From NCBI GenBank assembly GCA_030053935.1, contig JASGCU010000002.1, forward strand, positions 9,107 through 73,106: a stretch of DNA of 64,000 nt. The letters run 5' to 3'. This document shows positions 44,442 through 59,689 of the stretch, piece after piece (position 1 is the stretch's first letter; each line of letters starts with the position of its first letter). The position numbers and the translations under genes are program-made. The stretch is from Chitinophagaceae bacterium. Its GTDB lineage: Bacteria > Bacteroidota > Bacteroidia > Cytophagales > JASGCU01. A model generated the notes under the pieces. The model did not search any database and had not been told where the DNA came from. It saw only the letters and a program-made list of their open reading frames with translations.

Positions 44442-44514
44442 AGCGGACAACGAGGTTCGAACCCGCGACCTGCAGCTTGGAAGGCTGCCGCTCTACCATC
44501 TGAGCTATGTCCGC
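44442..44514 (-). tRNA. tRNA-Gly (anticodon TCC)
   Basis: Hand fold: acceptor GCGGACA/TGTCCGC, anticodon stem GCAGC/GCTGC with loop CTTCCAA, T loop TTCGAAC. Confidence 0.88.
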
Positions 44515-44536
44515 CTTTATTTTATTTTTTTATTTT

Positions 44537-44654
44537 GTCTACTCCGAAAAGTGATTTTACAAAAATCAAAAGTACTTAAAGTTTTAAAACTATTAATAAT
44601 CAACTTTTTACAAAATTATAAATGTATCAAAAGTGATTTTTCGGAATGGATTCA
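44537..44654. repeat. family-A element, copy 3
   Basis: ctactccgaaaagtgatttt...aagttttaaaactattaataatcaa..ttacaaaattataaatgtatcaaaagtgatttttcggaatgg. Lies 23 bp upstream of the tRNA-Gly 5' end. Confidence 0.8.
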
Positions 44655-44852
44655 TTTTTTGATATTATAATCATAATTATTTAGGTTATAACTAAAATAT
44701 AATCTTTGCAATTATATACTTTTTTTAAAATTATAGTTTTTTTTAAAATTATTTGCTTTTTTACAAAGCTATTTTGCACTTTTTATTAAAATAATGATTA
44801 TTTTATTGAGTGTTTTAATGAAAAATTTATTTCGTGCATATTTTTTGTTTTT

Positions 44853-46274
44853 TTATATCATTTCAGGCATAAAAAATAAAAGTATAAGTAATATTGTCAA
44901 AATATATAAAATATAATCTTTTTCAAAAGAAAGAGGGATTTTTTTTACAGTATCTTCTGTTTTTTTTAAAAAAAGATAATAAGGGATTTTTATGTAATAA
45001 AAAAGAGAAAGTATCGTATTTAAAACAGCTGCAAAAAATATAATAAGTGAAAAAATATCTCCGTGTATATAATTTTTCCAAAGAAATAAAAACACGTAGA
45101 GCTTTGCAAAAAAACCAGCTGTGGGTGGTAACCCTGTCAAAGAAATAAGTACTATTATAAAGAATAGAGAAAGTAATATATTTTTTTTTCCAATCCCGCT
45201 TATAGATTCAAAGGTTTTTTTATGGAAAAGTTCCAATTTATCTATTAGTAAAAAAAAAAGAAAGTTCATACCTATTAATGCTATGGAGTAATAGCAAAAA
45301 ATATGAAAAGAAAAGTTACTTATAGAAGAAAGAAGTAAGAATAAAAAGCCCGAATGGGATATAGAAGAGTAAGCGAACATTTTGCGAATATCTGTTTGAA
45401 TAAGTGCTAATACATTTCCGCTTGTTATACTTACGATACCGATAAGAAGAAGTATTTGGGAAAAATATGGTATCGCTAAAAAAATAGAAAGGATTCTGAA
45501 AAGAACTAAAAAGCAGGCGATTTTAGGAATGGTAGATAATATAGCAACAAATGGAAGAGAAGAATTTTGAAATACATTTGGCATCCATATATGGAATGGG
45601 AATATTCCTATTTTAAAAAATAATCCTACCAAAAAAAGTAATGTAAAAAATAAAACTACTTTATAATTTTGACTACTGAGAGATGTTATAAATTGATAAT
45701 CCATATAGTACATACTGCCTGCCATACCGTATAAAATACTCATCGCATATAGCATAACTCCTGAAGCAAGAACGCCGTATAATAAGTAATTAAAAGCGGA
45801 TTCCGTACTTTTTTTATTATCAGAAAAACATGCTAATATATAAGAACAAACGGATAGCATTTCTAAAGAAATAAAAAGAGAAATAAAATGAGACGAGGTG
45901 ATTAATAAAAGGGACGAGGTTAATAGGGCAAGAAAAACATAAAAATATTCGTGCTTTGTTTTTAAAAAAGAGTAGGAGAAAAAAACACTCAAAAAGCAAC
46001 ATATTGTTATAGAAATAAGTCCGAACTCTGTATATATGTCGTATATAAAAGTTCCGTCAAAAAGTATATAAACGTCTGTGGTTTTTGTTTTTGTGAGGAA
46101 AAAGAATCCAGAAAAAATGCAATTCAATACGAGAATAGAAAGATTTATAAAAAGAGAATATTTATTTTTTGGGATGGAAATATCTATGAGAAAGAGTAAT
46201 AATATTCCTAGTATGCTTATTATTATAGGGGTAAAAAAGAATAAATCTTTGATAATTGAGGGGTAAAGGTTCAT
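44853..46274 (-). CDS. nuoN: NuoN/ND2-type proton-conducting membrane subunit (PF00361-like), orphan
   Basis: 473 aa, about 14 TM. ...FKIGIFPFHIWMPNVFQNSSLPFVAILSTIPKIA... matches the NuoN/ND2 core. No other nuo genes adjacent. Confidence 0.7.
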   Translation of the reverse strand: MNLYPSIIKDLFFFTPIIISILGILLLFLIDISIPKNKYSLFINLSILVLNCIFSGFFFLTKTKTTDVYILFDGTFIYDIYTEFGLISITICCFLSVFFSYSFLKTKHEYFYVFLALLTSSLLLITSSHFISLFISLEMLSVCSYILACFSDNKKSTESAFNYLLYGVLASGVMLYAMSILYGMAGSMYYMDYQFITSLSSQNYKVVLFFTLLFLVGLFFKIGIFPFHIWMPNVFQNSSLPFVAILSTIPKIACFLVLFRILSIFLAIPYFSQILLLIGIVSITSGNVLALIQTDIRKMFAYSSISHSGFLFLLLSSISNFSFHIFCYYSIALIGMNFLFFLLIDKLELFHKKTFESISGIGKKNILLSLFFIIVLISLTGLPPTAGFFAKLYVFLFLWKNYIHGDIFSLIIFFAAVLNTILSLFYYIKIPYYLFLKKTEDTVKKIPLSFEKDYILYILTILLILLFFMPEMI

Positions 46275-46310
46275 TATTATTACTTTTTTTAAGTGTGATT
46301 ATAATATAAA

Positions 46311-46687
46311 TATAGGTCTATAAGCCGGATTCTGTTCTCTTGAGAGTTTCTATCATTTATCTGGGTTATTTGTTGCCAAACAACTCTATCGACCTACCCA
46401 ATCCGAATTTATTTGAAACAAATAAACAAGCGAGCAGCTTTTTTTCGGATCCTATTTGGTCTTTCAACTCGTAAGGTTTATCATGCTTTTGATATCACTA
46501 TCAAAACGGTAAGCTCTTACCTCACCTTTTCACCCTTATCTTAAAAAGACGGTTTTCTTTTCTGTGATACTGTCTGTTATTTTGTTTTGATGACAAAATA
46601 CCTTCCCGTTAGGAAGTACGATGCTCTGTGTTGTCCGGACTTTCCTCTTCATTTATGAAGCGATAGAACGACCTATATTTAATATTA
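46311..46687 (-). ncRNA. rnpB: RNase P RNA, bacterial type A
   Basis: The minus strand contains GAGGAAAGTCCGGAC (P4 5' strand), GATAAGGGTGAAAAGGTGAGGTAAGAGCTTACC (P10-P12 region) and ACAGAATCCGGCTTATAG (P4 3' strand). Terminal P1 pairing tataggtc/gacctata. Ends approximate. Confidence 0.92.
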
Positions 46688-47007
46688 TATGTGAATAATG
46701 TTAGTATCTATTGAGTGTATGGAAGAAAACTATGTTTTTTTTAGTTTAAGTTTCTTGTGGTGGTATGGTGGTGTTTTTAAAATTTACTTTATTATAAGAG
46801 GGTATTTATATTACAAATATATTTTGAAAACGAAAATAATTGGGGTAAAAATTATTTCATTGAGATGTAAGTATTTATATTTTATAAGTAAATCAATTAT
46901 TATGGTTGGTATAAATTAAGAATTGCTTGTGTTTTAAATGAAAGTATACTTTACTGATGGATTCAAGAAATATTTCTCAATATTTTATTTTATATCTATT
47001 AAAAAAA

Positions 47008-47073
47008 TCAATCAGAATCAAAATATTTATGAAAAAATTGTGTAAAAAAGATCCGTTTTTAGGAACCCCTTTC
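47008..47073. repeat. family-C short element, copy 2
   Basis: atcaatcagaatcaaaatatttatgaaaaaattgtgtaaaaaagatccgtttttaggaacccctttc. Lies 17 bp beyond the 3' end of the 47091-48131 gene; about 75% identical to copy 1 by eye. Confidence 0.45.
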
Positions 47074-47090
47074 TGTAGTTTGTAAGCGTT

Positions 47091-48131
47091 TTATTTAATT
47101 TTTTTTATGCTATAAATAGATGCTACGGCTCCAAATGAGAGAGTTGCTAAGTTCACTCTAAAGGTATCATCTACATAAGATCCTTTTTGTATCAGAGTTT
47201 GATTATTGTATCTCTCACTAGGGTTCATAAAATCAGTAGTCATATGTTGGTATTGAAATTCGGTAAACAGATGCCATTGTTTATTGATGGGTATTTTTAT
47301 CCCTATTCCTGCAAAAATGCTGATATTTATAGATTTTCTGAGGGTGGCTTCTTGTTTCAGTAAGTTTTCTCCGAATATATTTTGGATTTTTCCTCCGCCT
47401 GCTCTGTTTTGTAGGTCTGCTGTTGATGCGAATAGGTAATTAAGGTTTGCTCCGATGTTTATATAGGGTTGTATTTTTTTAAGACTTATAGTATATTCTA
47501 AAAATAATGGGGTTTGGAGTATATAATCTGTTTCTGTGAGGTCTGTTTTGTAATCTATAGGTATTGATATGATAAATTGTTGCCACATAAATCCTATTCC
47601 TGTTCCTATGGTGATGTTTTTTAGAATATCTTTTTTTATGAAAAGATTTATTCCTGCTCTGAAAGAAGGTTGAATTTGTTTTTGAATTTCGTTGGTGTTG
47701 TGTAATCCGAAAGAAGCGTATGAAATGATATGTGGATAGTTTCCTATGGCTTTCATTCCTACCTTGAGTATTGGTTTGTATCTAAAAGTTTCTTTTAAAA
47801 AAAAGAGTTCTTTTTTATCTATATCGGGATTAAATTCGTGTTCTTTATCCCTTTGGAGGATTTTTTTCATCCATTTGTCTGCTTCTGCATATTTGTCTTC
47901 ATATAAAAGAGACATTATTACGATTTTAGTGGCATTTATAAGTTCTTCTTTTGTTAATACATTTTTAGAATCGTTGAGGCAGTTTTCGAGTTTTTTAGGT
48001 ATTTCAGATATATGTCCAGTGATATAAAGTTTTTCTGCGTCTTCTATTGTTTGAATGCAAGATATTTGTTCTTGTGCAAATGCATTATAAATAAAATGAA
48101 GGGATAGAAATGTTATTGCTAATGTTCTCAT
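47091..48131 (-). CDS. outer-membrane beta-barrel protein (OMP_b-brl_2-like) with N-terminal helical/TPR-like domain
   Basis: 346 aa. Signal peptide MRTLAITFLSLHFIYNAFA-QEQ, an about 110-aa helical region, then alternating-hydrophobicity strands (ITIGTGIGFMWQQF, IQPYINIGANLNYLFA, ISIFAGIGIKIP, WHLFTEFQYQHM). Confidence 0.65.
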   Translation of the reverse strand: MRTLAITFLSLHFIYNAFAQEQISCIQTIEDAEKLYITGHISEIPKKLENCLNDSKNVLTKEELINATKIVIMSLLYEDKYAEADKWMKKILQRDKEHEFNPDIDKKELFFLKETFRYKPILKVGMKAIGNYPHIISYASFGLHNTNEIQKQIQPSFRAGINLFIKKDILKNITIGTGIGFMWQQFIISIPIDYKTDLTETDYILQTPLFLEYTISLKKIQPYINIGANLNYLFASTADLQNRAGGGKIQNIFGENLLKQEATLRKSINISIFAGIGIKIPINKQWHLFTEFQYQHMTTDFMNPSERYNNQTLIQKGSYVDDTFRVNLATLSFGAVASIYSIKKIK

Positions 48132-48140
48132 ATAGTTTAT

Positions 48141-51100
48141 TTATTGTTTATTAGGACATGTTTTTTCGTATAAAATATTTTCTCCTACATATTGTTTCCA
48201 TTCATTTTGGGTGAGGTTTCTGGATTTTGCACAGAGTTTATCTGCTATAAAATCAGGTTCTATCGGCCATACTTTCATAAAATCATCGTTACTTCCTGTG
48301 ATAATTTGTTTTGTTTTTTCATGAAAAATTCCATCGAATACCCATTCTTCTGATTCTTTTAATACTATTGGTGGGTCAGATATGTATTGCAACACCCATA
48401 GTTTTGTAGTATGATCTAATCCAGTGCTGATTAATAACGAGTTGTCAGAATTAAATTCTATATTGCTTACTCTGCTGGAGTGAGCATTTATATCAGAAAA
48501 TAATTTATTTGTTTCCATATCCCATATATATATTTTTCCGGATTTATCACCAAAAGCGATATATTTTTTATTTTTACTCATTGATACGCATGTAATAGCG
48601 TTGTTATTCACAGTATTTTTTGCGATAGGGATTGTGTATTTATAACGGAGGGTGTTTTTTTCTGTTATATCCCATATCATAATTTTTCCATCTGCAGAGC
48701 CGCTTATTAACATTTTATCATCACTGCTCATATCTATAACTTTTACATCTTCATGTTCTTTTAGTATTTCTATTGGTGGGATTGTAGAGTTTTCATAGTT
48801 GTATATGCGAATATATTGATCTTCTCCGATAGATATAAATTGTGGTTTATTTTTGAAGAATACTATATCATTAATATTTCCGTGGTGTTCTTCTAGTATG
48901 GTTGATTTTTCTGTTTTTAGGTTTACGAGTATTATATTTTCTTTAGTTCCTACGGCGAGGTATTTATCATCTTTACTAATAGCGAGAAATTTATTTTCGA
49001 ATTTATTTTCTAAAATTACTTTATAGCTTCTTTTTGGGTCTTGTATATTCCATTTTATTATTTTTCCATCACCTCCTGTGGAATAAACAGAATTTCCTTC
49101 ATTTGTTGCGACTATACTGTATACTCCAGATCCTCTAGAATGCCCTTTCCATCTTATAATATCTATTCCTTCGGTTGTTTGCCAAGCGTTAAATAATCCC
49201 ATGTATACATCGGGGTTATATTTTTTATAAGAATATTTGCGGTCGTAGAGAAATGCTTGTTTTGCAATAGCAGATTTTAGTTCGGGGTCTCTTATTTGTT
49301 CTACTCTCACGGCAAGAGATTGTGCGAGAGATTGGAATCTTAGTTTTTCGGCAATTTCTCTTTCTCGGCGGGCTTCGTTTGCACTTTGTTCTGCTTGTAA
49401 TTGTTGTATTCGGGCTTCTTCTTCTTTTTGTTGAGCAATGAGTGCGGATTTTTGGGCTTCTTCTTCTTTTTGTTGGGCAATTTTACTTTGCCGAGTAGCT
49501 TCTTCTTTTTGTTCTTGTGCTATTTTCGTTTGTTTTTCGGCATATAAGCGAGCTTCTTGTGCTTTTTTAGTTTCTTCTTCTGCTTTTTTTTTGGATATTT
49601 CTGCAGCTTTTGCAAAGCTAATTGCTTTTTCAGATTCTATCACTGCTTTTTTTCTTTGGATTAGTGCTTCTTTTGTAGCTTCTGTAGATATTTTTAACTG
49701 ATCTCTGGAATAGATAACTAATCCTACTAAAACTATTGCAACAGCAGCGCATATTATAGATGTTATTCTAAAAGCTCTAATTTTATTTTTTTGTTTTATG
49801 AGTTTTATTCTTTGTTCTTCTTCAAATTCTCTTTGTGAGGTTTCTAAAAACACCATAACTCTTTCGTATGCTTTATGGTATCTTCGTCCCCAAAAGGGGG
49901 TAGGATTTATTTCTTCTTTCCAGTTGAGAGCGGCTTGTAGATGAGGCATTTTCCAGAGGTCTCCTTCTCCTGTTACAAATTTTTCAGCGGCATCGGATAA
50001 TCGCAAATACATATCTACGGATTTTGATTCTTCTTCTAACCATACTTTTAGTCTTGTCCATATTCTCATAATACTTTCATGTGAAATATCTATAAGAGTT
50101 TCTCCATCAATAGGGTAGTTATGGGGAGGCATGAGAAGAGATCTGGATGGGTCTCTGAATAGATTGATGACGTTTATAACTTTTATTGGGGTAGTATTAG
50201 CTATTTTTGCGATGGTTTTTAGTTTTGTTGGTCTTCTAATCCCTTTATTTTCTGCGTTTTTTTCGGTGAGGGTTTTGAATAGTACTTCACATATTTTTTT
50301 TTCTTCTTGAGTAAGAGAATCGTATGCCTCATTGGCATGTTCGGATAGGGCTTCTTTTACGGTACCAATTGCTATGTATTCAGATATGTCTATTGGATCA
50401 TTTGTATGTCCTTTAGTATCATTCCAATATTGCCATGTGCGCATCAGGGCATGTTGGAGGACAGGGAGTTGGTCGGGGTTATCGCCGATATCATTCAAAA
50501 GTTGTTGTGTGAGCCGAGGAGTTATAGATCCTCCGACGACTAAAATAGGACCTTCTATGGCTAGTTTTTTTTGTTCTCGATTCATTTGTGGTATAAGATA
50601 ATGGCTTTCGTTTATTTTCTGTGTGAGATTTGGGAAAAAAGCACATTCACCTATAAAATCGGAACGCATTGTTAATGCAATATAAATAGATTCATTTTGA
50701 ATTTCTAATGCTTCGGTGATGAGGGATATAAAGTTATTCGCTTCTTCTTGTGAATAGGCTGAATTATCAGTAGTTCTGTATCTAAAAATTTCTTCAAACT
50801 GATCTATAAGTATAAAATAGTTTGTGTTTTTATCTTTTTTTAAATAATTAATAGCATCTACAAGTCCTAATGAGCTATTTCTTAATATGGAAGAGATGAC
50901 TGTTTGTTTTGTCATTTTTTCTTCATTTGATTTTTTTTTATACTCGGGATGTAGAGAGCTGATAAGTGCTTCTGCCATATTTTCTATTGGTGATATACCG
51001 GGTCTAAAAATAATAATATCCCAAGAAGCGCCTGCTTTTGTAACAAATCCTCCGTATAAAATTGGAAGAAGTCCACAATACATAAGAGAAGATTTTCCAC

Positions 51101-51296
51101 TACCGGATGATCCTAGTATTGCTACAAATCTATGTTCTGCTAATCTCATAAGTACTTCATCACTTTGTCCTTCTCTTCCAAAAAATAAATGAGATTCGTT
51201 AATAGTAAATGGTCGTAATCCTGGAAATGGGTTTATTCCCTTTACTTGAATAGATATATTTTCCGTAGTGTACGATGTCGTTTTTGGATTATTCAT
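48141..51296 (-). CDS. nSTAND-type P-loop NTPase - single TM helix - coiled coil - WD40 repeat protein
   Basis: 1051 aa. N-terminus NPFPGLRPFTINESHLFFGREGQSDEVLMRLAEHRFVAILGSSGSGKSSLMYCGLLP (Walker A) and YFILIDQFEEIF (Walker B), as in the novel-STAND-1 family. Hydrophobic ITSIICAAVAIVLVGLVIY (DNA 49712-49768). Lys/Glu/Gln coiled coil. At least 5 WD40 units (e.g. LISGSADGKIMIWDI, IAFGDKSGKIYIWDM, STGLDHTTKLWVL). Confidence 0.8.
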   Translation of the reverse strand: MNNPKTTSYTTENISIQVKGINPFPGLRPFTINESHLFFGREGQSDEVLMRLAEHRFVAILGSSGSGKSSLMYCGLLPILYGGFVTKAGASWDIIIFRPGISPIENMAEALISSLHPEYKKKSNEEKMTKQTVISSILRNSSLGLVDAINYLKKDKNTNYFILIDQFEEIFRYRTTDNSAYSQEEANNFISLITEALEIQNESIYIALTMRSDFIGECAFFPNLTQKINESHYLIPQMNREQKKLAIEGPILVVGGSITPRLTQQLLNDIGDNPDQLPVLQHALMRTWQYWNDTKGHTNDPIDISEYIAIGTVKEALSEHANEAYDSLTQEEKKICEVLFKTLTEKNAENKGIRRPTKLKTIAKIANTTPIKVINVINLFRDPSRSLLMPPHNYPIDGETLIDISHESIMRIWTRLKVWLEEESKSVDMYLRLSDAAEKFVTGEGDLWKMPHLQAALNWKEEINPTPFWGRRYHKAYERVMVFLETSQREFEEEQRIKLIKQKNKIRAFRITSIICAAVAIVLVGLVIYSRDQLKISTEATKEALIQRKKAVIESEKAISFAKAAEISKKKAEEETKKAQEARLYAEKQTKIAQEQKEEATRQSKIAQQKEEEAQKSALIAQQKEEEARIQQLQAEQSANEARREREIAEKLRFQSLAQSLAVRVEQIRDPELKSAIAKQAFLYDRKYSYKKYNPDVYMGLFNAWQTTEGIDIIRWKGHSRGSGVYSIVATNEGNSVYSTGGDGKIIKWNIQDPKRSYKVILENKFENKFLAISKDDKYLAVGTKENIILVNLKTEKSTILEEHHGNINDIVFFKNKPQFISIGEDQYIRIYNYENSTIPPIEILKEHEDVKVIDMSSDDKMLISGSADGKIMIWDITEKNTLRYKYTIPIAKNTVNNNAITCVSMSKNKKYIAFGDKSGKIYIWDMETNKLFSDINAHSSRVSNIEFNSDNSLLISTGLDHTTKLWVLQYISDPPIVLKESEEWVFDGIFHEKTKQIITGSNDDFMKVWPIEPDFIADKLCAKSRNLTQNEWKQYVGENILYEKTCPNKQ

Positions 51297-51306
51297 AATT
51301 TTGTGT

Positions 51307-52794
51307 TTATTTAGATTCTATAGTATCTATAAAAGGAAATAATATACTTTGGTAAAAATCGCTGTTGTTATAAGTAACGTGTAGTAATTTGTTTTCAAAT
51401 TTTTTAGGGTCGCTATTATTGTTAATGTAAATTCCGTGTTTTTTTGTAGAATATGTTCCTTCAAAAGCTGGGGTCCTGTGGATATCTTGTATTTTGGATA
51501 AAACCCATTGTTCGTTTATTTTTCCATATATTATAAAAGAAGCATCACATTGCTGTAGGTATATTCTATGTAGATTTCGCATTTCTATTATATTTGTTTC
51601 AAAATTAGGTGTAATAATATGAAAGTCCATATCTTTAAAAAACTTTACTATAGGAATAGCAATATCGGTATCTATTTTGTCAAAAATAACATAAATACTT
51701 TTTTTTTTTTCTATAGCAGATGTTTGGTGTCTTTTTTTTTTAAATTGCTCACCTAAAAAGTGTATTTCTTTTTTTATTAATTCTTTAAGTTCGGCAATAT
51801 TTCCTTGGAATATATCTAAAAAATAGTCTGTATTAATATCTGTTTTTATTCTATCTATAAAAATATCTTGTTTTTCATAGTGGTTTTGAAAATTTTGTGG
51901 TATCCATATTATTTTTTTTAAAAAGTGATTTGTTTGTTTTCGTATATTTTGAGAATAGGATTCTACTATGTTGTATTGTAGTTCTGCAATAGATATTTTA
52001 TTTTCTTGTGCTTCTGTTCCATAATATTCGCCTATTAGATGGATAGACATAATGCTTTTTTGTATATTCTCTATAATAAATGATTCAATTTCTTCATTTT
52101 TTTGGGGTAAGGGAGTTGTTGGTAAAACATTATACCCATAACGTACCAGTTCTCGTTTTATAGTATCTCTTTGATTTACAAGGTCATGTTCTGTAATTGA
52201 TAAGTATATTGTTTTTTCTTTTTCAAGTTCTTCTTTTTCTGGATATGTATTTTTTGATTGTTGATTTTCGTGTTTTAAATTATGGTAAATATATTTTATA
52301 TGGTTTGCAATATCTAACATGTTCATCCAGTAAGGGTTTTTTGACCCTTTTCCTAAAAAAGGAATAAGTTCTTCTATTTCCCTTGTAATGTTATTTATTA
52401 TATAAAATTCATATTTTTGTGTGTTTTTATACTCATTTAGGAATACATCTTCTTCTATTGGTTTTTTTAATACTTCAATTATTGGATATAATTTTTCAAG
52501 AGAGCGGTTTTCTTCTGTGTGGTATTTTTCTCCAAATTCTTTTATTTTTTGAACAAGAGTATTTTTTTTATTATAACCAGTGGATACAATAATTATACAA
52601 ACAAGTGTGTTTTTCCATGTTTCTTTTTCAATAAAAGCATCAGATACTAGTTTTATTGTAAGTGGGACAGGCATTATTTGTATCAAATAAGATCTTAAAA
52701 TATCCTCAAAACTTTCTATCCATAGAATTTCTTCTTTTTTAGTGTTTCTTTCTGGTTCTGTATAACATATAATTATTTCTGTTCCTATCTGCAT
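51307..52794 (-). CDS. hypothetical protein with three tandem TIR/DUF4062-like modules
   Basis: 495 aa. A thrice-recurring strand-acidic-helix-strand pattern (TEIIICYTEPE.., TIYLSITEHDLVNQRDTIKRELVRYGYNVLP.., SIYVIFDKIDTDIAIPIVKFFKDMDFHIITP..). The fold assignment is inference from pattern only. Confidence 0.45.
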   Translation of the reverse strand: MQIGTEIIICYTEPERNTKKEEILWIESFEDILRSYLIQIMPVPLTIKLVSDAFIEKETWKNTLVCIIIVSTGYNKKNTLVQKIKEFGEKYHTEENRSLEKLYPIIEVLKKPIEEDVFLNEYKNTQKYEFYIINNITREIEELIPFLGKGSKNPYWMNMLDIANHIKYIYHNLKHENQQSKNTYPEKEELEKEKTIYLSITEHDLVNQRDTIKRELVRYGYNVLPTTPLPQKNEEIESFIIENIQKSIMSIHLIGEYYGTEAQENKISIAELQYNIVESYSQNIRKQTNHFLKKIIWIPQNFQNHYEKQDIFIDRIKTDINTDYFLDIFQGNIAELKELIKKEIHFLGEQFKKKRHQTSAIEKKKSIYVIFDKIDTDIAIPIVKFFKDMDFHIITPNFETNIIEMRNLHRIYLQQCDASFIIYGKINEQWVLSKIQDIHRTPAFEGTYSTKKHGIYINNNSDPKKFENKLLHVTYNNSDFYQSILFPFIDTIESK

Positions 52795-52815
52795 TTATGT
52801 GTATTTATAAATGAT

Positions 52816-55800
52816 TTAAATTATTTGAATGGTATTTTCAAATACTTTTAGATGTTTGGTTTCTAAAAATATTGCGGTTACTATCTCTTTATATTTTCCT
52901 GCTGCTTCAAAAAAGTCTACTGCGGGTAGCACTAAAAGTTCTGTTTTTTCTTGTGCAATATATCTATGTTGATTCGCTTGATATTCTAGTATGGTATCCA
53001 ATCCTATAACAGAACCTGAGTATAAAGTATCTAATATTTGTTCGCTATCATTATATAAGAGAACTTCTCCATGTAACAATATGTAAATAAACTCATTTTT
53101 TTTTATGTTTTGATCTACGAGTATTTTTTTTTCGTTTAGTATTACGTATTTAAAAGATTCTATTATATTTGCAAGAATGTCTTCGGGAATATGTTTAAAT
53201 AGGAAAATTTTGCTGATAAATAATATTTTTTCGGATAGGAGCATTATTTTTTTTTTGGTATTTTCTTTCCCATAGGATTGTATTTCTGTACGTGTGTTAT
53301 TTGATAATAAAACTTTATCTAATTCTTTTTTGATGTTTATATCTAATAATTGAGAATAGTATTCGTATGCTCGTTTATCCTTACTATAAATTATATAAGC
53401 GCTTGTCTCGTATATTAATTTGTTTTTATGGAATATACAAGCAGATATACTTTGATTCAGAGGTACGTGTTCCATTTCTTTTAGTGCTAATAGTGCTAAT
53501 ACTTTTATCCAGTGGTTTATATTATTGTATCCTCTGTTTATGATAGATAATAAAATATCTTCATTATTTTTAAAATGTATTATTGGATAATATGTTGATA
53601 ATTTGTCTACTTTATTAGATATATGGTTATCATCAAAAATAATAAATGCTACTTCTTTTAATTCTACGTCTAAAAAAATATCTAGCATTTCTAATGCGAA
53701 AGTTATACCTTCTATATTTTTTTCATTGATATTTTCTTTTACTAAAATAACAGATTGAGTATCGTATAGTAGTATCATGAGATTAAATATTTGCTCATTA
53801 TTTTTCTCATTTTCGTTTTTTAATGATTTTATTATTAATCGTGTTAGATATTCTGTTTCTTCGTGATGACGGAATTTTATAAGGGATTGTATGCAATTGA
53901 GATTCCATACTATTTTAGAAAACAGAGATTGAATTTCTGTTTTTATTCGTTCTCTTTGAATTCCTTTTGCTTTATAGTTTAAAAAGCTTAACCAATAAAA
54001 AACTTCATTTACAATAATTTTATCATGAAAATCTGTTTTTTTCCATAATCTATTAACACAATCTTGGTTTCCAATGCGTCCTAATATTTGAACTATGAGA
54101 AGCATGGTTGCTCTATTTTGTTCTGTTCTATAGAAGGCGGCGTCTATCAAATGAACGACGTTTTCTTGAAGTATAAGGGAAGATTTTGCGAGAAGCGAGT
54201 AAGTATGGGTAGAAAGGTTGTCTATAAGTAAATGGTATAATTCGTTGTAGTGTAGAGATGTGGTGCTGATAATGGCTGCTTTTCTTACATCAGGGTCTGA
54301 ATCTTTTAGGAGATCTATGAGTAAGAGCAAATGCTTATCGTCTTTTTTTATTTGTGAAAGCAATTGAGATAAAAATATTTTGTTTTTTTTGTTAGTTGAT
54401 TGTGTTATTTTTTTTGATTCCGTATAATCTAAAAGGTATGATCTATTATGAGCGAGGTATTCTACTAATTTTTTAGATTGTTCTTTTAATACGGGTATTG
54501 TTTCTTTTTCAGCAAAGATTTTAATTTCTTCTAAATAATGGAAATTATTATACTCAAAGCATTTGGTGTATATAAATTCTCTTATTTTTATATTATCAAA
54601 TTCCAAAAGATATATGAGGTATTTTTTATAGAGAATAACATCTATTTTTTCTAATATATTGAGTCCTATAATAGCATTATTGTAGTGATTTTCTTGTAGG
54701 TTCAGAATAATATTATTCATTATATATGCCTCTATATTATTTTTATTGACATTTTCTATTTCTTGTTTTTGAGACATAAGAGACCGCTTAATAGCTATTT
54801 TATATTCATCATACAAGAGTGATGCTAGGATTAATACGGTTACTAAAAGGATAATATTTATGTAAAAATAATGGATAGTTGTAAAAAAATTTAAGGATCC
54901 TAATCCTAATAGTATAATTCCTAAAATAAAACTCGATGATTCATTTACAACTCCTTCTATTCTGGACTGGATGTTTAACCGTATTTTGGGATTTAATGGG
55001 AGAAAACAATTCTTAAAAGAGAGTGTTTCTATGGCATCCTTTGTAGAGCTGCCAAGAACTCTTCCTATAGCAGTAAATAAGAAGAAAAAAAGATAGTCAC
55101 TATCATTTTCTTGATAACCGTATATATGCCCTGTGATAACAGAACCTATACAAAATATGGATAGGACAAAGGGCATAATCATAAGAGATGTTTTTATTCC
55201 AAAATTGGTTAATATATAATCACTGACTGTTGTTTGAATAATAAATGTCATCCCCACGACAGCGGCATCGTAAAAGGATAGAAAAATGGAAAGGTCTTTT
55301 TCTTCTGTGTATCTGATGTCCATCGCTCCTAAATATGCGTTTTCCATCAGCAATTTTGTAGCGGTGGATGCTATGAGAAAAAAACAAAGAATCTTCAAAT
55401 AATTATTACTGAATAAAAAACTATACGATATTTTATTATTTAATTGGGTGCTCTTGTTTTGTATTTTTGTATCTATATTAAAATCTCGAACCAATATAAT
55501 TGAGGTAATAAAGAGGCATAGTATTCCAACCACAGATACATTTAATAGGTTCTCAGTTCTAATGAGGTCAAAATTTTTGAGAAAAGCAATAACCATAAAA
55601 GTAATAAAAGTAGCAGTGAGCTGCCCCGAATCTATCCCTCCTATAAGTCGCTTCGCCGAACGAATATCAAAAATTCTTCCGAAAGCTCCCCAAAAAACTA
55701 AAAATGTTAATGCTTTTATAGGTGATAAAAGAGTAAACATAATAAAGGTTATCCGAACATCACCCGTTAGTTTCAGAATAATCTGTAGTCCGAATACTAA

Positions 55801-56076
55801 TAAAAAAATAAAAAAAAGTATAGTGATAGTTATGGAAGAATATTTTAAGGTATTTTGATAGTGGACAAAGCATAAAGTTCCCATTACTCCTAATACTCCA
55901 CTCACTATTAAAGCAGGAACTAAATATTCTTTCCCTATACTAAGAAGGAATAGAGTTTCTACTCCTACTTGGTACATGGCAATAAATACGCCCATAAAAA
56001 ATCCCATTAAGAGGAGAAGTATGATTTGGTATTGTTGTTCGGGTCTCCCCCCTAAGAATATGATTATTTTTTTCAT
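52816..56076 (-). CDS. TLC (ATP:ADP antiporter)-like MFS membrane domain fused to HEAT repeats and a C-terminal cNMP-binding-like domain
   Basis: 1086 aa. About 11-12 TM in the first 430 aa, with FWGAFGRIFDIRSAKRLIGGIDSG resembling the TLC FW..an.....AKR motif. HEAT-type LLKDSDPDVRKAAIISTTSL. C-terminal FKHIPEDILANIIESFKYVILNEKKILVDQN...FIYILLHGEVLLY...LYSGSVIGLDTIL...TELLVLPAVDFF reads as a CAP-effector (cNMP) fold with an atypical phosphate-binding cassette. Confidence 0.7.
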   Translation of the reverse strand: MKKIIIFLGGRPEQQYQIILLLLMGFFMGVFIAMYQVGVETLFLLSIGKEYLVPALIVSGVLGVMGTLCFVHYQNTLKYSSITITILFFIFLLVFGLQIILKLTGDVRITFIMFTLLSPIKALTFLVFWGAFGRIFDIRSAKRLIGGIDSGQLTATFITFMVIAFLKNFDLIRTENLLNVSVVGILCLFITSIILVRDFNIDTKIQNKSTQLNNKISYSFLFSNNYLKILCFFLIASTATKLLMENAYLGAMDIRYTEEKDLSIFLSFYDAAVVGMTFIIQTTVSDYILTNFGIKTSLMIMPFVLSIFCIGSVITGHIYGYQENDSDYLFFFLFTAIGRVLGSSTKDAIETLSFKNCFLPLNPKIRLNIQSRIEGVVNESSSFILGIILLGLGSLNFFTTIHYFYINIILLVTVLILASLLYDEYKIAIKRSLMSQKQEIENVNKNNIEAYIMNNIILNLQENHYNNAIIGLNILEKIDVILYKKYLIYLLEFDNIKIREFIYTKCFEYNNFHYLEEIKIFAEKETIPVLKEQSKKLVEYLAHNRSYLLDYTESKKITQSTNKKNKIFLSQLLSQIKKDDKHLLLLIDLLKDSDPDVRKAAIISTTSLHYNELYHLLIDNLSTHTYSLLAKSSLILQENVVHLIDAAFYRTEQNRATMLLIVQILGRIGNQDCVNRLWKKTDFHDKIIVNEVFYWLSFLNYKAKGIQRERIKTEIQSLFSKIVWNLNCIQSLIKFRHHEETEYLTRLIIKSLKNENEKNNEQIFNLMILLYDTQSVILVKENINEKNIEGITFALEMLDIFLDVELKEVAFIIFDDNHISNKVDKLSTYYPIIHFKNNEDILLSIINRGYNNINHWIKVLALLALKEMEHVPLNQSISACIFHKNKLIYETSAYIIYSKDKRAYEYYSQLLDINIKKELDKVLLSNNTRTEIQSYGKENTKKKIMLLSEKILFISKIFLFKHIPEDILANIIESFKYVILNEKKILVDQNIKKNEFIYILLHGEVLLYNDSEQILDTLYSGSVIGLDTILEYQANQHRYIAQEKTELLVLPAVDFFEAAGKYKEIVTAIFLETKHLKVFENTIQII

Positions 56077-56118: not shown

Positions 56119-57234
56119 TTAATCCAATAGAGAATCTACATTTTTATAAGGGGTATGAAATGCCTCTGATACGGCTTTATACACAACATGAGAATGGATA
56201 ATATTAAGTCCTAATTTGAGTTCTTTTTGGTCTTTACATGCTTGTTTCCATCCTTTATTTGCTAAATTAACCGCATAAGGAATGGTAGCATTAGTAAGTG
56301 CAATGGTAGATGTATAAGGAACTGCTCCTGGCATATTAGCAACACAATAATGAATTACTCCACTTACTTCATAAATAGGGTTTTGATGGGTGGTAGGATA
56401 GGTAGTTTCAAAACATCCTCCTTGGTCAACAGCAACATCTACCATAACCGTTCCTTTTTTCATAAACGCAAGCATCTCTTTGGTAATAAGCTTGGGGGCT
56501 TTTGCTCCCGGTATAAGAACAGCTCCTATAATCAGATGATGATCTTTGATAAGTTCTCGGATGTTATATTCATTACTCATAAGGGTCTTTACATTTTTTG
56601 GCATTATATCATCTAAATAACGTAATCTTTCCAAACTTATATCAAGTATAGTAACATCTGCGTTAAAACCTGCTGCCATCTTTGCTGCTTCTGTTCCTAC
56701 CACACCTCCTCCTATGATTAATACTTTTGCGGGTCGTACGCCGGGGACTCCTCCAAGTAAAATTCCCATTCCTCCCATTGGTTTTTCTAAATATTTTGCA
56801 CCTTGTTGGATAGACATTCTCCCCGCTACTTCAGACATTGGTACGAGGAGCGGAAGTGATTTGTCTTCTTTTTCGACTGTTTCGTAGGATAAACATACTG
56901 CTCCATTATCTATCATAGCTTTAGTAAGTTTTTGATTGGATGCAAAATGAAAATATGTAAATAACAGATGGTTTTTTTTTACTAATGTATATTCTTCTTC
57001 AATGGGTTCTTTTACTTTTATAATCATTTCAGATTTTTCATATACGGAATCTATAGTAGGTAATACAGATGCTCCTCCTATCCGATAATCTTCATCACTA
57101 TAACCACTTCCCGAACCTGCTGACTCTTGAACGTACACATCATGTCCTCTTTTTATTAATTCTGCAACACCACTCGGAATAGCGCCTACTCTATTCTCAT
57201 TGTTTTTTATTTCTTTTGGTATTCCTATAATCAT
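56119..57234 (-). CDS. ald: alanine dehydrogenase
   Basis: 371 aa. MIIGIPKEIKNNENRVG..., NAD motif VLIIGGGVVGTEAAKMA, ...VDVAVDQGG... Confidence 0.92.
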   Translation of the reverse strand: MIIGIPKEIKNNENRVGAIPSGVAELIKRGHDVYVQESAGSGSGYSDEDYRIGGASVLPTIDSVYEKSEMIIKVKEPIEEEYTLVKKNHLLFTYFHFASNQKLTKAMIDNGAVCLSYETVEKEDKSLPLLVPMSEVAGRMSIQQGAKYLEKPMGGMGILLGGVPGVRPAKVLIIGGGVVGTEAAKMAAGFNADVTILDISLERLRYLDDIMPKNVKTLMSNEYNIRELIKDHHLIIGAVLIPGAKAPKLITKEMLAFMKKGTVMVDVAVDQGGCFETTYPTTHQNPIYEVSGVIHYCVANMPGAVPYTSTIALTNATIPYAVNLANKGWKQACKDQKELKLGLNIIHSHVVYKAVSEAFHTPYKNVDSLLD

Positions 57235-57811: not shown

Positions 57812-57967
57812 AAAAAAAATTGAACATATATCAAAAATGACTAAAATAAATATTATGTTATTATTTTACCATTCTAAACGCTCTTAAGAGCGAAAAAAAT
57901 ATGAACACATATCAAAAATAACCAAAATAATATTATGTTATTATTTTATTTTTTTACCAATCTAGAA
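57812..57967. repeat. imperfect about 70-bp direct duplication flanking a 14-bp palindrome; the second copy carries the start of the 57935 gene
   Basis: Copy 1 is 57812-57877 (aaaaaaaattgaacatatatcaaaaatgactaaaataaatattatgttattattttaccattctaaa). The palindrome cgctcttaagagcg is at 57879-57892. Copy 2 is 57892-57967 (gaaaaaaatatgaacacatatcaaaaataaccaaaataatattatgttattattttatttttttaccaatctagaa). Confidence 0.8.
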
Positions 57968-59689
57968 TCTACTAAGATAGTTATTTTTTATAGTATACTC
58001 TATTTATTTTGTTCTTGTGCAAGCCAGTCATCTCTCACCGGAGGAAAAAAAGACACCATTCCACCGACTCTTATTGCTTCCATTCCCAAAAACAACTCTA
58101 CAAATTTCAAAAACAAAAAAATTATACTTACCTTTAGTGAAAGTATTCAAGAAAAAAACCTAAAAAATAATCTTATCATAACCCCAAACTATGATAATAC
58201 TTTTCAACAAACCATATCAAATAAAACTCTCATACTTTCATTTCGTAAAAACTGGAAAGACAGCACTACCTATACCTTAAATTTTAATAATACTATTGCT
58301 GATACGAGAGAAAAAAATGAAGCAAAAAACCTAACTCTTTCTTTTTCCACAGGAAATACTATTGATACTCTTTCTATAAACGGAGTAGTAACGGATTTAA
58401 TGAACAATAAATCTATAAATAATGCCACCGTCTCTCTTTTTTACTCCAAAGACACCTGTAATATCCTAAACTGCAAGCCCCTTTACCTTGCTTATACGAA
58501 TGAAAAAGGTTTCTTTCGTATTACAAATATAAAAAAAGGATATTACATTCTATTTGCTTTTGAAGATAAAAATAAAAACTCAAAAGCCGAACCCGATACC
58601 GAACCATCCGGTTTTATAAAAGATACATTACAAATAGAACAAAATACTGACTCATTAAAAATAAAACTATCCACCATAGATATACGTCCAATAAAAAAAA
58701 TATTCAGCAAAGCCAACGGAACATATTTTGATGTAAAATACAATAAACCACTTGTAAAATGCAAAGTAATTATTGCAAAACAAGATTCTCTCAAGCAACC
58801 TAAATACAGATATGCCTTTGTAGAGAATAAAACAACTGTAAGATTTTATAACAGAACCAAAAAATTTGATAGTGCTAAAATTATCTTACAGGTATTTGAT
58901 ACTACTTTTTGCACAAAAATAGATACTTTTTTTCTAAAATTTCAACCCTCCAAAAAGCAAAAAACACCATTTTATTACTCTCTCAATCCTAACAATAAAA
59001 CCGAAGAACTTCAAAAAATATTTATTACTTTTTCAAAACCACTCCTTCTTTTTAATTGGAACAAAGTTTTTATCACTTACGATAGCGTCCCATATAAACA
59101 ACCATTAGACACATCTCACGTTATATGGAACGAAAATAAAAACATAGTTTCTTTTATGCTCAAACTCAATAAAAATTTCATACGGTATAAAACGGACTCT
59201 CTCAAAAAAGAATTTTCAAAAATAGAAAAGGATACCGCTTCCCCATACTATACCACAATAAAAAAAAAAATAAATACCTTTTCAAAAATAAAAGAAAATT
59301 CTTTTTACATCTCTTTCCAAAAACAATGTATTATTTCTATAGATTTAGATACTCCAAAAACCCAATCTTTCCTTTATTCTTTTTATGAAACAGAAAACTA
59401 TGGTATTATTTCAGGAAAAATAAACACTTCTCAAAAAAAATATATTTTACAACTTATAAATAAAGATTACAAAGTAATACAAGAGATCCCTCATACAAAA
59501 GATTTTACATTCTCTCTTATTCCACCCGGTGATTATTCATTTCGTATATTAATAGATAGTAATGAAAATGGAATATGGGAAAATGCGAATATAATAGAAA
59601 AAAGACAGCACGAACCTGTCTTTTTTTATGATACATTTATAAATATACGAGCTAATTGGACCATTGATAATATAAATATAACTTTCTAA
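57935..59689 (+). CDS. Ig-like (Big_5/SbsA-type) domain lipoprotein
   Basis: 584 aa. Lipobox-like ...YLFCSC followed by DTIPPTLIASIPKNNSTNF...ILTFSESI, typical of Bacteroidota Ig-like domain proteins. The start sits in a duplicated segment, so the exact start is uncertain. Confidence 0.65.
   Translation: MLLFYFFTNLESTKIVIFYSILYLFCSCASQSSLTGGKKDTIPPTLIASIPKNNSTNFKNKKIILTFSESIQEKNLKNNLIITPNYDNTFQQTISNKTLILSFRKNWKDSTTYTLNFNNTIADTREKNEAKNLTLSFSTGNTIDTLSINGVVTDLMNNKSINNATVSLFYSKDTCNILNCKPLYLAYTNEKGFFRITNIKKGYYILFAFEDKNKNSKAEPDTEPSGFIKDTLQIEQNTDSLKIKLSTIDIRPIKKIFSKANGTYFDVKYNKPLVKCKVIIAKQDSLKQPKYRYAFVENKTTVRFYNRTKKFDSAKIILQVFDTTFCTKIDTFFLKFQPSKKQKTPFYYSLNPNNKTEELQKIFITFSKPLLLFNWNKVFITYDSVPYKQPLDTSHVIWNENKNIVSFMLKLNKNFIRYKTDSLKKEFSKIEKDTASPYYTTIKKKINTFSKIKENSFYISFQKQCIISIDLDTPKTQSFLYSFYETENYGIISGKINTSQKKYILQLINKDYKVIQEIPHTKDFTFSLIPPGDYSFRILIDSNENGIWENANIIEKRQHEPVFFYDTFINIRANWTIDNINITF

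Follow-up and report, generated by a model that had tools for sequence, protein, structure and literature searches.

The four genes A-B-C-D of the window (the whole 64-kb stretch of DNA that was analysed) may be the retained core of a trans-envelope signalling module that is inherited vertically and includes a non-enzymatic TIR-type adaptor, with a physiological role being the likelier one; we hold this reading tentatively, at a probability of about 0.4. The module was found mainly in Cytophagales-type Bacteroidota, where the ancestral cluster has six genes: A-D, E (a β-propeller lipoprotein) and F (a giant T9SS surface protein). No published description of an A-F cluster was found, and no known defence system matches the arrangement, which the first-pass annotation had not recognised either: it matched neither PADLOC nor the named DUF4062 systems. 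The A-F cluster is undescribed, and the A-D genes of the window are its trimmed-down form.

The ORF coordinates confirm four minus-strand genes with gaps of 21, 10 and 9 bp (Table 1), and no intrinsic terminator was predicted between them, in a scan whose coverage leaves out Bacteroidota promoters. The cluster is flanked by ald, rnpB, tuf and rpoBC in the window and by queA, gcvP and similar genes in other lineages. The calls of ald and rnpB as neighbours stood; the "repeat element" placed downstream of D did not, since this AT-rich non-coding region holds no significant repeats, only short ones at chance level.

Table 1. Features of the A-D cluster and its immediate surroundings (positions within the window).
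Feature	Positions	Strand	Description	Basis
Gene A, 1086 aa	52816-56076	minus	inner-membrane NTT(TLC)-like domain, HEAT-repeat solenoid, C-terminal cyclic-nucleotide-binding-fold domain	ORF call
A, aa 1 to ~440	54757-56076	minus	NTT/TLC-like multi-TM domain	profile alignment to 9j3n
A, aa ~470-940	53257-54669	minus	HEAT-repeat region	Pfam HEAT_2/HEAT; alphaRep/HEAT matches in PDB
A, aa ~950-1075	52852-53229	minus	cNBD-fold domain; phosphate-binding cassette degenerate	PKG CNB match
Gene B, 495 aa	51307-52794	minus	cytoplasmic; degenerate TIR, DUF4062, DUF4062-like	ORF call
B domain 1, aa 1-112	52459-52794	minus	TIR; S..WC..E hallmark lost (K77, T79, L80, K83)	
B domain 2, aa 193-332	51799-52218	minus	DUF4062; Gln273 at catalytic "E-Y" position	
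B domain 3, aa 365-495	51310-51702	minus	DUF4062-like; W430...K434 in place of TIR W...E	
Gene C, 1051 aa	48141-51296	minus	bitopic inner-membrane STAND NTPase; WD40 propeller predicted periplasmic	ORF call
C, aa 1-505	49782-51296	minus	cytoplasmic nSTAND1 NTPase and conserved juxtamembrane helices	Pfam, motif conservation
C, aa ~506-532	49701-49781	minus	TM helix, N-in/C-out	hydropathy, charge bias
C, aa 533-700	49197-49700	minus	periplasm-spanning helical/coiled-coil linker	composition
C, C-terminal part	48144-49196	minus	WD40 β-propeller and C-terminal tail with Cys pair C1022, C1047	Pfam WD40, β-propeller families
Gene D, 346 aa	47091-48131	minus	signal peptide, helical periplasmic N-domain with C...C motif, outer-membrane β-barrel	ORF call
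Spacer	46680-47090		AT-rich, non-coding; place of genes E and F in relatives	synteny comparison
ald	56119-57234		neighbour of A-D cluster	
rnpB	46305-46679		neighbour of A-D cluster	

Since the window alone is incapable of proving co-function, a fortuitous adjacency of four unrelated genes had to be considered, with nothing else in its favour. It is refuted, and its probability is negligible, because (i), A-B-C-D occur in identical order and strand in ~60 of the 80 fetched genome loci, which belong to different species and share 25-45% identity, so that the adjacency is not due to chance, (ii), pairwise distances are correlated between the genes from A to E (r 0.84-0.99), meaning that the genes co-diverge as a unit and, (iii), one protein (P0078) is a direct B-nSTAND1 fusion. 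The four genes do therefore co-occur widely outside the window genome, contrary to the outcome that the first-pass annotation had named as refuting its reading, and A-B-C-D is supported as a real functional unit. The scan matched 315 species, and the fetched ones, almost all Cytophagales, have one cluster locus per genome; the cluster is inherited vertically. Comparison with a 75%-identical relative gave dN/dS values of 0.12-0.23 for A-D at dS ~0.55, indicating that their function is retained in the window lineage. The longest contig of the window genome is 1.2 Mb, and the cluster is kept there under purifying selection.

The envelope-spanning layout suggested for the cluster is well supported by gene C. 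The first-pass call of a transmembrane nSTAND-WD40 NTPase holds for its product: an nSTAND1 NTPase (Pfam, residues 23-441, E 5e-92; Walker A GSSGSGKS, Walker B FILIDQFEE) is followed by a TM helix, then by a coiled coil and finally by a WD40 propeller (Pfam, residues 714-1025). The TM helix has a Kyte-Doolittle mean of 2.72; it is preceded by 15 residues with a net charge of +7 and followed by 15 with a net charge of 0. All 62 C sequences examined have the helix, its positive-inside bias and Walker A (Walker B is recognisable in 61), the helix and charge pattern being repeated in all orthologs and in proteobacterial homologs. The linker, rich in E, K, Q and A with 1 Pro/Gly in 158 residues, would reach ~22 nm if its ~150 residues formed a helix, and the tail cysteines are near-invariant (C1022 and C1047 each kept in 58/61 sequences). 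The WD40 domain is predicted to be periplasmic. Mean identity to orthologs is 58% for the nSTAND1 domain, 56% for the juxtamembrane helices and 26% for the WD40 domain (ω 0.15); ω ranges from 0.07 to 0.30 over all sub-domains of B and C. Gene D was rightly taken for an outer-membrane β-barrel: OMP_b-brl_2 is marginal in the window protein (30.5 bits, cutoff 27), but 27 of 30 orthologs match it, with a best E of 1e-19. D also carries a signal peptide and a conserved C.Q.L..A...Y..G....P..L..C motif; its AF2 model is usable for the helical N-domain only.

Gene A encodes, again in line with the initial calls, an NTT(TLC)-HEAT-cNBD membrane protein, a class already described (PMC5381601). Pfam places HEAT_2 at residues 558-623 and cNMP_binding at 984-1058, both of which are detected in 18/18 A orthologs. 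The NTT/TLC homology is invisible to Pfam and emerged from the family profile, which matches solved structures of ADP/ATP carriers (9j3n_A, E 3.5e-17; 9j3j_A, E 7e-13): the aligned stretch runs over profile positions 112-428 and over residues 147-494 in the ADP,ATP carrier 9j3n, and it includes the FWG...KR motif. The cNBD matches PKG CNB domains (E 1.6e-23), although the residues aligned to their phosphate-binding cassette FGE...R[ST]A (FGE...RSAT in PKG) are not conserved, which argues against the cNMP gating of A put forward in the first-pass annotation. Two loci, L007 and L045, lack A, which may therefore be non-obligatory.

The triple TIR-like nature of B is borne out, as TIR, DUF4062 and DUF4062-like domains, and its AF2 model shows three alpha/beta domains (pLDDT 75). 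The canonical TIR motif is the consensus of the domain 1 family (Pfam TIR_2 is detected in relatives), and a weak match to a plant TIR in the PDB aligns the plant catalytic Glu to K83. In domain 2 (mean identity 64% among operon orthologs), Pfam DUF4062 covers residues 196-275, profile positions 2-80 of 82; the catalytic position is Gln in 124/137 family members and Glu in 12. Q273 was assigned to this position from motif register, secondary-structure position and residue spacing (76 from Y197 to Q273, as from F11 to E87 in Eva01), not from a solved structure. Domain 3 is related to domain 2 (hhalign probability 95%, E 2.6e-8), and its K434 is kept in 125/137 family members. Over the operon loci, the domain-1 Glu is found in 1/61, the domain-2 Gln in 60/61 and the domain-3 Lys in 61/61; in 60/61 loci no domain of B retains the catalytic Glu. 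The E-to-Q change at the catalytic residue inactivates PsAvs2, Vulcan and Vesta and has killed every DUF4062 enzyme tested so far. Without a canonical catalytic Glu, B is predicted from its sequence to be a pseudoenzyme or adaptor. It may be likened to the animal TIR adaptors and to the inactive TeTIR of NPHP3, most mammalian TIRs being inactive too; an assembly role without enzyme activity is what we propose for B.

The original suggestion that B makes or degrades a nucleotide thus fits poorly with the K83, Q273 and K434 of the window protein. It would require B to be active via non-canonical residues, a NAD-derived or cyclic nucleotide then binding the cNBD of A and gating the transporter. 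We consider this very unlikely, even if the B domains are strongly constrained (dN/dS 0.22 for B; ω 0.30 for domain 1 and 0.12 for domain 3) and contain invariant polar residues (H252, Q273, W297, R406, H409, D417 and K434), R209 apparently corresponds, judging by residue spacing, to the NAD-contacting R914 of TEP1, the cNBD fold persists in 18/18 A orthologs and the PDB matches of A include the PycTIR cNBD. Besides the missing Glu residues, the effect of E-to-Q changes and the degenerate cassette of A, the cluster has no cyclase.

B+C pairs without the rest of the cluster exist in apparent Proteobacteria, one of them on a mobilizable Caballeronia plasmid beside a DUF4231 protein; D, E or F do not adjoin these pairs. 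The TIR (domain-1) Glu is present in 9/9 of them, in contrast to the operon loci. The module may derive from a simpler two-gene pair, an active TIR protein and a TM-STAND-WD40 protein, which still occurs by itself, apparently in Proteobacteria. The conservation of B+C pairs alone in distant bacteria and the P0078 fusion speak for a coupling of B to C. For other B modules the fusion partner is a Ser/Thr kinase or CHAT, which would suit an adaptor.

That a dedicated outer-membrane barrel closes the operon holds for the window genome only: relatives add the propeller lipoprotein E (lipobox; propeller profile, CylK, E 5e-15) and F, with Ig/cadherin domains and a Por_Secre_tail. No E homolog was found anywhere in the 64 kb, and homology to locus L088 stops ~30 bp past the D stop codon, so that, judging by synteny, the spacer is the site of E and F loss in the window lineage. 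Conservation drops toward the cell surface, down to a hypervariable F, a pattern also compatible with an arms race. In 18 of the 19 loci sampled F comes after E, and it bears a T9SS sorting domain, E is an outer-membrane-type lipoprotein propeller and D has a weak PorG-like match; the cluster might hence mainly serve F, by secreting or anchoring it, controlling its quality or regulating it (for adhesion or gliding), the window genes being a leftover that would eventually decay or that has been re-used. This seems quite unlikely: A to D are clearly under purifying selection where the locus lost E and F, D shows no match to PorP/SprF and stays below the PorG cutoff, and the stand-alone B+C pairs have no D, E or F beside them.

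In the signalling module that we favour, C would be the transducer. With its nSTAND1 NTPase in the cytoplasm, the single TM helix and ~22-nm linker would bring the WD40 propeller, with its disulfide-stapled tail, across the periplasm to the outer membrane, on whose inner face C would contact D and read the state of the barrel via its periplasmic helical domain; in relatives, C possibly reads E and the giant fast-evolving F too. An envelope or cell-surface cue would make the C NTPase switch or oligomerise and then engage B. Since its TIR domain and both its DUF4062 domains have lost the catalytic Glu, B would serve as an adaptor for assembly without enzyme activity, or might sense a nucleotide without hydrolysing it, and would relay the signal by contacting the HEAT/cNBD cytoplasmic arm of A, the presumed output, whose NTT-type nucleotide transporter would be modulated. 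If true, the state of the envelope or surface controls nucleotide or energy exchange, which we consider likelier than abortive-infection immunity.

TIR, DUF4062, STAND and WD40 parts are overwhelmingly tied to immunity in the literature; the majority of STAND clades have no defence association. If the cluster served in anti-phage defence or abortive infection, with an extracytoplasmic sensor, the giant F would act together with D and E as receptor or decoy for phages, the WD40 domain in the periplasm would detect phage attack at the envelope, and STAND-B assembly would open or reverse the NTT-like A, draining nucleotides and halting infection. Such a role is unlikely, although the components belong to the immune toolkit (DUF4062/NIR effectors, Avs-type STANDs), the fusions of B modules to kinases and CHAT resemble those of conflict systems, one B+C pair is carried by a mobilizable plasmid next to a DUF4231 protein, the surface-exposed parts diverge fastest and the WD40 sensor has a mere 26% identity among orthologs. 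The defence reading of the first-pass annotation is not supported, given the lack of a PADLOC match, the absence of copies among the contigs of the viral collection, the loss of the catalytic Glu in 60/61 operon loci and the vertical inheritance of co-diverging genes at a single locus per fetched genome, with housekeeping flanks in every lineage inspected. The purely physiological envelope-signalling role that it had also offered is better supported: the WD40 domain is itself under purifying selection, and the genes were kept in the window genome, with its 1.2-Mb longest contig, although the locus lost E and F.

The four minus-strand genes, here called A to D in transcription order, lie exactly where the first-pass annotation had drawn their ORFs, with the same intergenic gaps of 21 (A/B), 10 (B/C) and 9 bp (C/D). 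Their neighbours in the window (ald, rnpB, a NuoN-like ORF, tRNAs, tuf and rpoBC) are housekeeping genes. The repeat element that the annotation had placed downstream of D was not found: positions 46680-47090 are an AT-rich spacer in which repeats occur only at chance level. Sigma-70-like promoter sites were fewer than in shuffles in a promoter/terminator scan whose model does not cover Bacteroidota promoters. The GC skew of the plus strand is positive over 44500-55500, though the operon genes are on the minus strand, and negative at rpoBC and tuf, which are likewise minus-strand genes; the coding strand of the operon is therefore richer in C than in G and strongly richer in A than in T, unlike that of its neighbours.

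Coordinates of the four genes under study
Gene	Position in the window	Strand	Product
A	52816-56076	-	1086 aa ORF
B	51307-52794	-	495 aa ORF
C	48141-51296	-	1051 aa ORF
D	47091-48131	-	346 aa ORF

The grouping of these four genes, seen at first in one genome, is borne out in many others. Word-indexed homolog searches badly under-reported the families (18 matches for B and 2 for D). An exhaustive profile search recovered at least 1502 clusters (50% identity) of the B family at E <= 1e-30, and when one genome per species was scanned by alignment, 315 genomes proved to contain a relative of B. Of these 315, the best 80 are nearly all Cytophagales, with Ekhidna, Marinoscillum, Reichenbachiella, Roseivirgaceae, Cyclobacteriaceae and Ohtaekwangia among them, and they include cultured strains (Marinoscillum furvescens DSM 4134, M. 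luteum KCTC 23939, Ekhidna lutea DSM 19307 and Ekhidna sp. To15). By tblastn and ORF chaining, the A-B-C-D order and strand are kept in essentially all loci with enough flank, at identities of 25-36% (A), 27-31% (B), 38-45% (C) and 22-30% (D).

In these relatives the cluster is longer than in the window. D is always followed by a fifth gene, E (399-494 aa); its product is a lipoprotein, as shown by the lipobox Cys, and the profile of this protein matches the CylK β-propeller (E 5e-15). In 18 of 19 sampled loci E precedes a giant ORF, F, exceeding 1340 aa. Ig/cadherin/Big domains occur in F, and copies whose end can be seen have a Por_Secre_tail of the type IX secretion system (T9SS). Pairwise distances of A to E correlate across 59 loci (r 0.84-0.99), and mean identity drops from the cytoplasm to the surface, from 56% for C, 52% for B and 48% for A to 36% for D and 26% for E. 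No trace of a gene 5 homolog was found anywhere in the 64-kb window. In relatives, exactly the place of the 46680-47090 spacer is taken by the propeller-lipoprotein gene and, in most cases, the giant T9SS gene after it; L088, the locus of a 75%-identical relative, retains gene 5, and its homology to the window stops about 30 bp past the D stop codon. Despite the missing gene 5, A to D are under purifying selection in the window, with dN/dS against L088 of 0.15, 0.22, 0.12 and 0.23, respectively, at a dS of about 0.55.

We assign C to the nSTAND1 clade on its match to Pfam PF20703 (E 5e-92), accompanied by WD40 propeller families, and on intact Walker A (GSSGSGKS) and Walker B (FILIDQFEE) motifs; its N-terminus had rightly been read as a STAND NTPase. 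The Walker A motif (GxSGSGKS) is present in all 62 C sequences examined and the Walker B motif (hhhhDQFEE) in 61. All 62 also have a strongly hydrophobic helix at about residues 500-530, preceded by 15 residues with a net charge of +2 to +7 and followed by 15 with a net charge of -3 to +2. Because of this charge bias, the NTPase is predicted to be cytoplasmic and everything after the helix periplasmic. The helix leads into a linker (533-690) with one Pro/Gly in 158 residues, which if helical would measure about 22 nm, as computed from helix geometry, and the C-terminal tail has two Cys, each kept in 58 of 61 sequences. From its transmembrane helix, the charge bias around it and the two conserved Cys, the sensor of C is predicted to be periplasmic, unlike the cytoplasmic phage-protein sensor of Avs-type systems. 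Identity among C orthologs is 58% in the NTPase and only 26% in the WD40 part; against the close relative, every sub-domain has an ω of 0.07-0.15.

B had been proposed to have a TIR/DUF4062-like fold, which holds. A protein 100% identical to it is encoded in a MAG that is labelled Chitinophagaceae and has a longest contig of 1.23 Mb. It matches Pfam PF13271 (DUF4062) over residues 196-275 (34.9 bits vs a cutoff of 24.7), and its AF2 model (pLDDT 75) has three α/β domains linked by long helices. A Foldseek search of the whole-chain model against PDB gave noisy flavodoxin, SIS and TIR matches, the model being multidomain with a pTM of 0.42, and supports a generic flavodoxin/TIR-like fold only. 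In the wider family, domain 1 is a canonical TIR (motif DIFISY...SP.Y..S.WC..EL), and Pfam TIR_2 matches relatives of B; domain 1 is called TIR solely on this family consensus and the TIR_2 matches. An hhalign comparison of domain 1 with domains 2 and 3 was not significant. Domain 3 is homologous to the DUF4062 domain 2 (hhalign 95%, E 2.6e-8).

DUF4062, also named NIR or TeTIR, is a TIR-like NADase reliant on one Glu, and E-to-Q mutants are inactive (2026 preprints); this Glu belongs to an 'E-Y' motif at the start of helix αC and corresponds to E87 in Eva01, E97 in KpSwz and E108 in PsAvs2. The window B has K83, Q273 and K434 at the equivalent positions of domains 1, 2 and 3, so that the enzymatic TIR step suggested earlier is not supported. 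Domain 1 also lacks the TIR S..WC..E pattern (K77, T79, L80, K83), and domain 2 reads Q273-Y274. The register of Q273 is supported in several ways: (i), Pfam residues 196-275 cover profile positions 2-80 of 82; (ii), Q273 lies at the start of helix αC in the AF2 model; (iii), Y197 to Q273 spans 76 residues, equal to F11 to E87 in Eva01; and (iv), Y197 to R209 spans 12 residues, equal to F902 to R914 in TEP1. Among 137 full-length family representatives, the domain-2 residue is Gln in 124 and Glu in 12, and the domain-3 Lys is present in 125. The 61 Cytophagales operon loci have the domain-1 Glu in 1, the domain-2 Gln in 60 and the domain-3 Lys in all. L007, a fetched locus and one of two without gene A, is the sole operon-type locus in which B (549-2027) has Glu, not Gln, at the DUF4062 catalytic position. 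The three domains stay constrained (ω of 0.30, 0.20 and 0.12 for domains 1, 2 and 3), and domain 2 is 64% identical among operon orthologs. Because the catalytic Glu is replaced while all three domains remain under constraint, B is a conserved predicted pseudoenzyme and not a decaying gene.

B-like and C-like genes also occur as a stand-alone pair. On plasmid pSBC2-4 of Caballeronia sp. SBC2 (NZ_CP049320.1, 3095-10495; locus L090), a B-like gene lies directly upstream of an nSTAND1-TM-WD40 gene. The first protein has TIR_2 with the catalytic Glu intact and Gln in domain 2; the second shares 34% identity with C in the NTPase part, and its TM helix, at residue 525, comes after RRRRRR. This pair is on a mobilizable plasmid, adjoins a gene for a DUF4231 transmembrane protein and is near an IS3 transposase. 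More relatives of the L090 protein (one labelled Paraburkholderia, others on metagenome contigs) belong to just such a pair, with A, D, E and F missing and in varying contexts; one copy is fragmented. Locus L093 (9001-14655) has a truncated B-like gene (366 aa), an nSTAND1 region broken into two ORFs and a further ORF for the WD40 part, and so resembles a stand-alone pair that has become a pseudogene. In each of the nine stand-alone pairs, B has retained the domain-1 Glu and carries Gln in domain 2. Within the family, B is also found fused to nSTAND1, Ser/Thr kinases or a CHAT protease. We propose that the module may derive from such a TIR + TM-STAND-WD40 pair, which in Cytophagales would have gained the transporter-like A and the outer-membrane/surface module D, E and F, with loss of TIR catalysis. 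This would make an evolutionary series, from a TIR Glu kept in the stand-alone pairs (9/9) to one lost in the operon (60/61), that parallels the conversion of animal TIRs into scaffolds.

The profile of the A family (18 orthologs) matches the ADP/ATP carriers 9j3n (E 3.5e-17) and 9j3j (7e-13) from TM3 to TM12. The 'TLC-like' label in the first-pass annotation was therefore sound even though Pfam misses it: a scan of the 18 members gave no Pfam TLC match at E<=1. The window protein also carries Pfam cNMP_binding (984-1058, 31.4 bits vs a cutoff of 27.5) and HEAT_2, and both are present in 18 of 18 orthologs. On these NTT structure matches and domains, we assign A to the NTT-HEAT-cNBD fusion class described by Major, Embley & Williams in 2017 (PMC5381601), whose three-part architecture is exactly the same; we found no later functional work on the class in the literature. 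That paper gives neither partners nor function, whereas the cluster provides one branch of the family with a conserved genomic partnership, a TIR-like adaptor and a STAND protein. The cNBD fold of A is clear (PKG match, E 1.6e-23). Classical cAMP or cGMP binding is nevertheless doubtful, because the residues aligned to the phosphate-binding cassette of PKG (FGE...RSAT) are not conserved: no Glu or Arg is constant there, and G1003 is the only invariant column of the family in the cassette region. In cyclic-nucleotide receptors of the CAP/PKA/PKG type this cassette (FGE...R[ST]A) makes contact with the cyclic phosphate. The cNMP gating of A that had been suggested is not supported.

D has a signal peptide, as do its relatives, and belongs to Pfam OMP_b-brl_2, which matches 27 of 30 orthologs (best E 1e-19); we class it as a predicted Bacteroidota OMP_b-brl_2-type outer-membrane β-barrel with an N-terminal signal peptide. 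Two T9SS candidates were rejected, PorG at 26 bits vs a cutoff of 130 and PorP/SprF for want of a PorP_SprF match in the 30 orthologs. The D profile found no match among PDB sequences, and a structure predicted from a two-sequence alignment was unusable (pLDDT 35).

Taken as a unit, A-D fits a trans-envelope signalling module, that is, a predicted STAND/TIR signalling system of unusual topology that could be tested in cultured strains. How the proteins touch each other, which way the signal runs and that A is its output are inferred. B would link the NTPase to A, either as an adaptor for assembly or as a ligand sensor that does not hydrolyse; non-catalytic TIRs have precedents in mammalian TIR proteins and in the inactive TeTIR of NPHP3, a non-immune STAND protein. 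In its most novel form, to which we tentatively give a probability of about 0.3, the system would be an 'outside-in' receptor assembled from immune components: the barrel D, the propeller lipoprotein E and the polymorphic giant F would form an outer-membrane/surface complex read by the periplasmic WD40 domain of C, which would signal through the non-enzymatic TIR/DUF4062 scaffold to the NTT-HEAT-cNBD transporter.

The first-pass annotation had offered a defence role beside a physiological one, and the immune ancestry of the parts and the fast evolution of the surface components leave defence standing as a rival. Against this, no known defence system is called for A-D: a PADLOC scan of the four proteins returned only P-loop noise (mad3 E 8e-4, mad8 E 0.012), and an NCBIfam scan of the same proteins gave nothing meaningful. 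Nor does the distribution look patchy, mobile or island-borne: in the lineages inspected the cluster is flanked by housekeeping genes, its members have diverged together, and no relatives were found in a viral-contig collection. We favour a physiological role over abortive infection because: (i), the cluster is vertically inherited, with one locus per genome among those fetched; (ii), its flanks are housekeeping genes; (iii), it is under purifying selection; and (iv), the genes have been kept although the longest contig of the genome reaches only 1.2 Mb. What stands of the original interpretation is the architecture and its novelty; its enzymatic step, cNMP gating and defence framing do not.

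A description of the A-F cluster was not found in the nSTAND/conflict-system papers, the 2026 STAND survey, the DUF4062/TeTIR preprints or the NTT paper. The nearest known systems include Avs/NLR-like STANDs with a DUF4062 (NIR) effector, such as PsAvs2 (bioRxiv 10.64898/2026.09.04.749371), which likewise join a STAND NTPase, a C-terminal repeat sensor and a DUF4062 module; the direct B-nSTAND1 fusions inside the B family add to this likeness. The system differs from the PsAvs2 type in several respects. Its TIR-like module is a separate three-domain protein that lacks the catalytic Glu, and its STAND protein is bitopic, the WD40 sensor being predicted to be periplasmic. The module is accompanied by the transporter-like A, the OM barrel D, the lipoprotein E and the T9SS cargo protein F, and the cluster has a housekeeping, vertically inherited context without a PADLOC match. 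Swarozyc, Evangelion, Vulcan and Vesta, single- or two-gene DUF4062 NADase defence systems, have the Pfam DUF4062 core fold in common with B, and Vulcan is a NIR-HEAT fusion, whereas HEAT repeats here are on the adjoining protein A. These four systems need the Glu of E-Y, their E-to-Q mutants being dead, but the same position is Gln in about 90% of the B family, and their gene content is wholly unlike that of the cluster. Identity with any of them or with Avs2 was rejected.

Animal TLR-MyD88 signalling, an analogy of mechanism only, similarly combines an extracytoplasmic sensor, one TM helix and cytoplasmic TIR domains that lack the catalytic Glu and signal by assembly, and NPHP3 uses its inactive TeTIR as a scaffold in a way that B and C may resemble. 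In the cluster, sensing would fall to a WD40 propeller carried by a STAND NTPase instead of an LRR ectodomain, and direct descent is unsupported. Tol-Pal and TonB likewise have an inner-membrane anchor, a long periplasm-spanning helical region, a periplasmic β-propeller and OM barrel and lipoprotein partners, but a sequence relationship is absent, and the energy here would be supplied by a STAND NTPase in the cytoplasm, not by a stator driven by the proton-motive force.

If the 'outside-in' reading is true, C would be, to our knowledge, the first STAND protein with an extracytoplasmic sensor, B a prokaryotic example of NADase-type TIR domains exapted as pure adaptors, and the cluster the first functional context for NTT-HEAT proteins. 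The reach of STAND/NLR-type switches, so far one of sensing in the cytoplasm, would then include cues sensed across the bacterial envelope. The NTT-HEAT-cNBD family, found also in Chlamydia trachomatis, cyanobacteria and oomycetes and uncharacterised since 2017, gains testable conserved partners, and the cultured carriers make the cluster open to experiment. For the mining of defence systems there is a caution: TIR, STAND and WD40 together are not in themselves proof of immunity.

Several other features of the window deserve mention. Between rnpB and the tRNA cluster is a lone NuoN/Mrp-type ORF (44853-46274, minus strand; Proton_antipo_M), outside any nuo operon in the window. A 411-aa ORF (17065-18300, minus strand) matches the N6_N4 DNA methylase model over its last third only (profile 134-213 of 221) and is overlapped by a plus-strand ORF (17545-18282); the 411-aa ORF could be what is left of a methylase gene or else encode a divergent enzyme. 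Upstream of ald, and in divergent orientation to it, a gene for a 584-aa protein (57935-59689, plus strand) encodes Big_5 Ig-like domains, as do some giant gene-6 proteins of relatives; no clear relationship to these and no Por_Secre_tail was seen in it. A full-length DUF5690 protein (28809-30116, minus strand; E 6.5e-157), of a family without known function, lies amid housekeeping genes. Finally, a 1256-aa protein (20325-24095, minus strand) consists nearly entirely of TPR repeats (TPR_1 E 3e-154); together with the window GC of about 29% and the 1.23 Mb of the longest contig of the source MAG, it may point to a streamlined or host-associated lifestyle.
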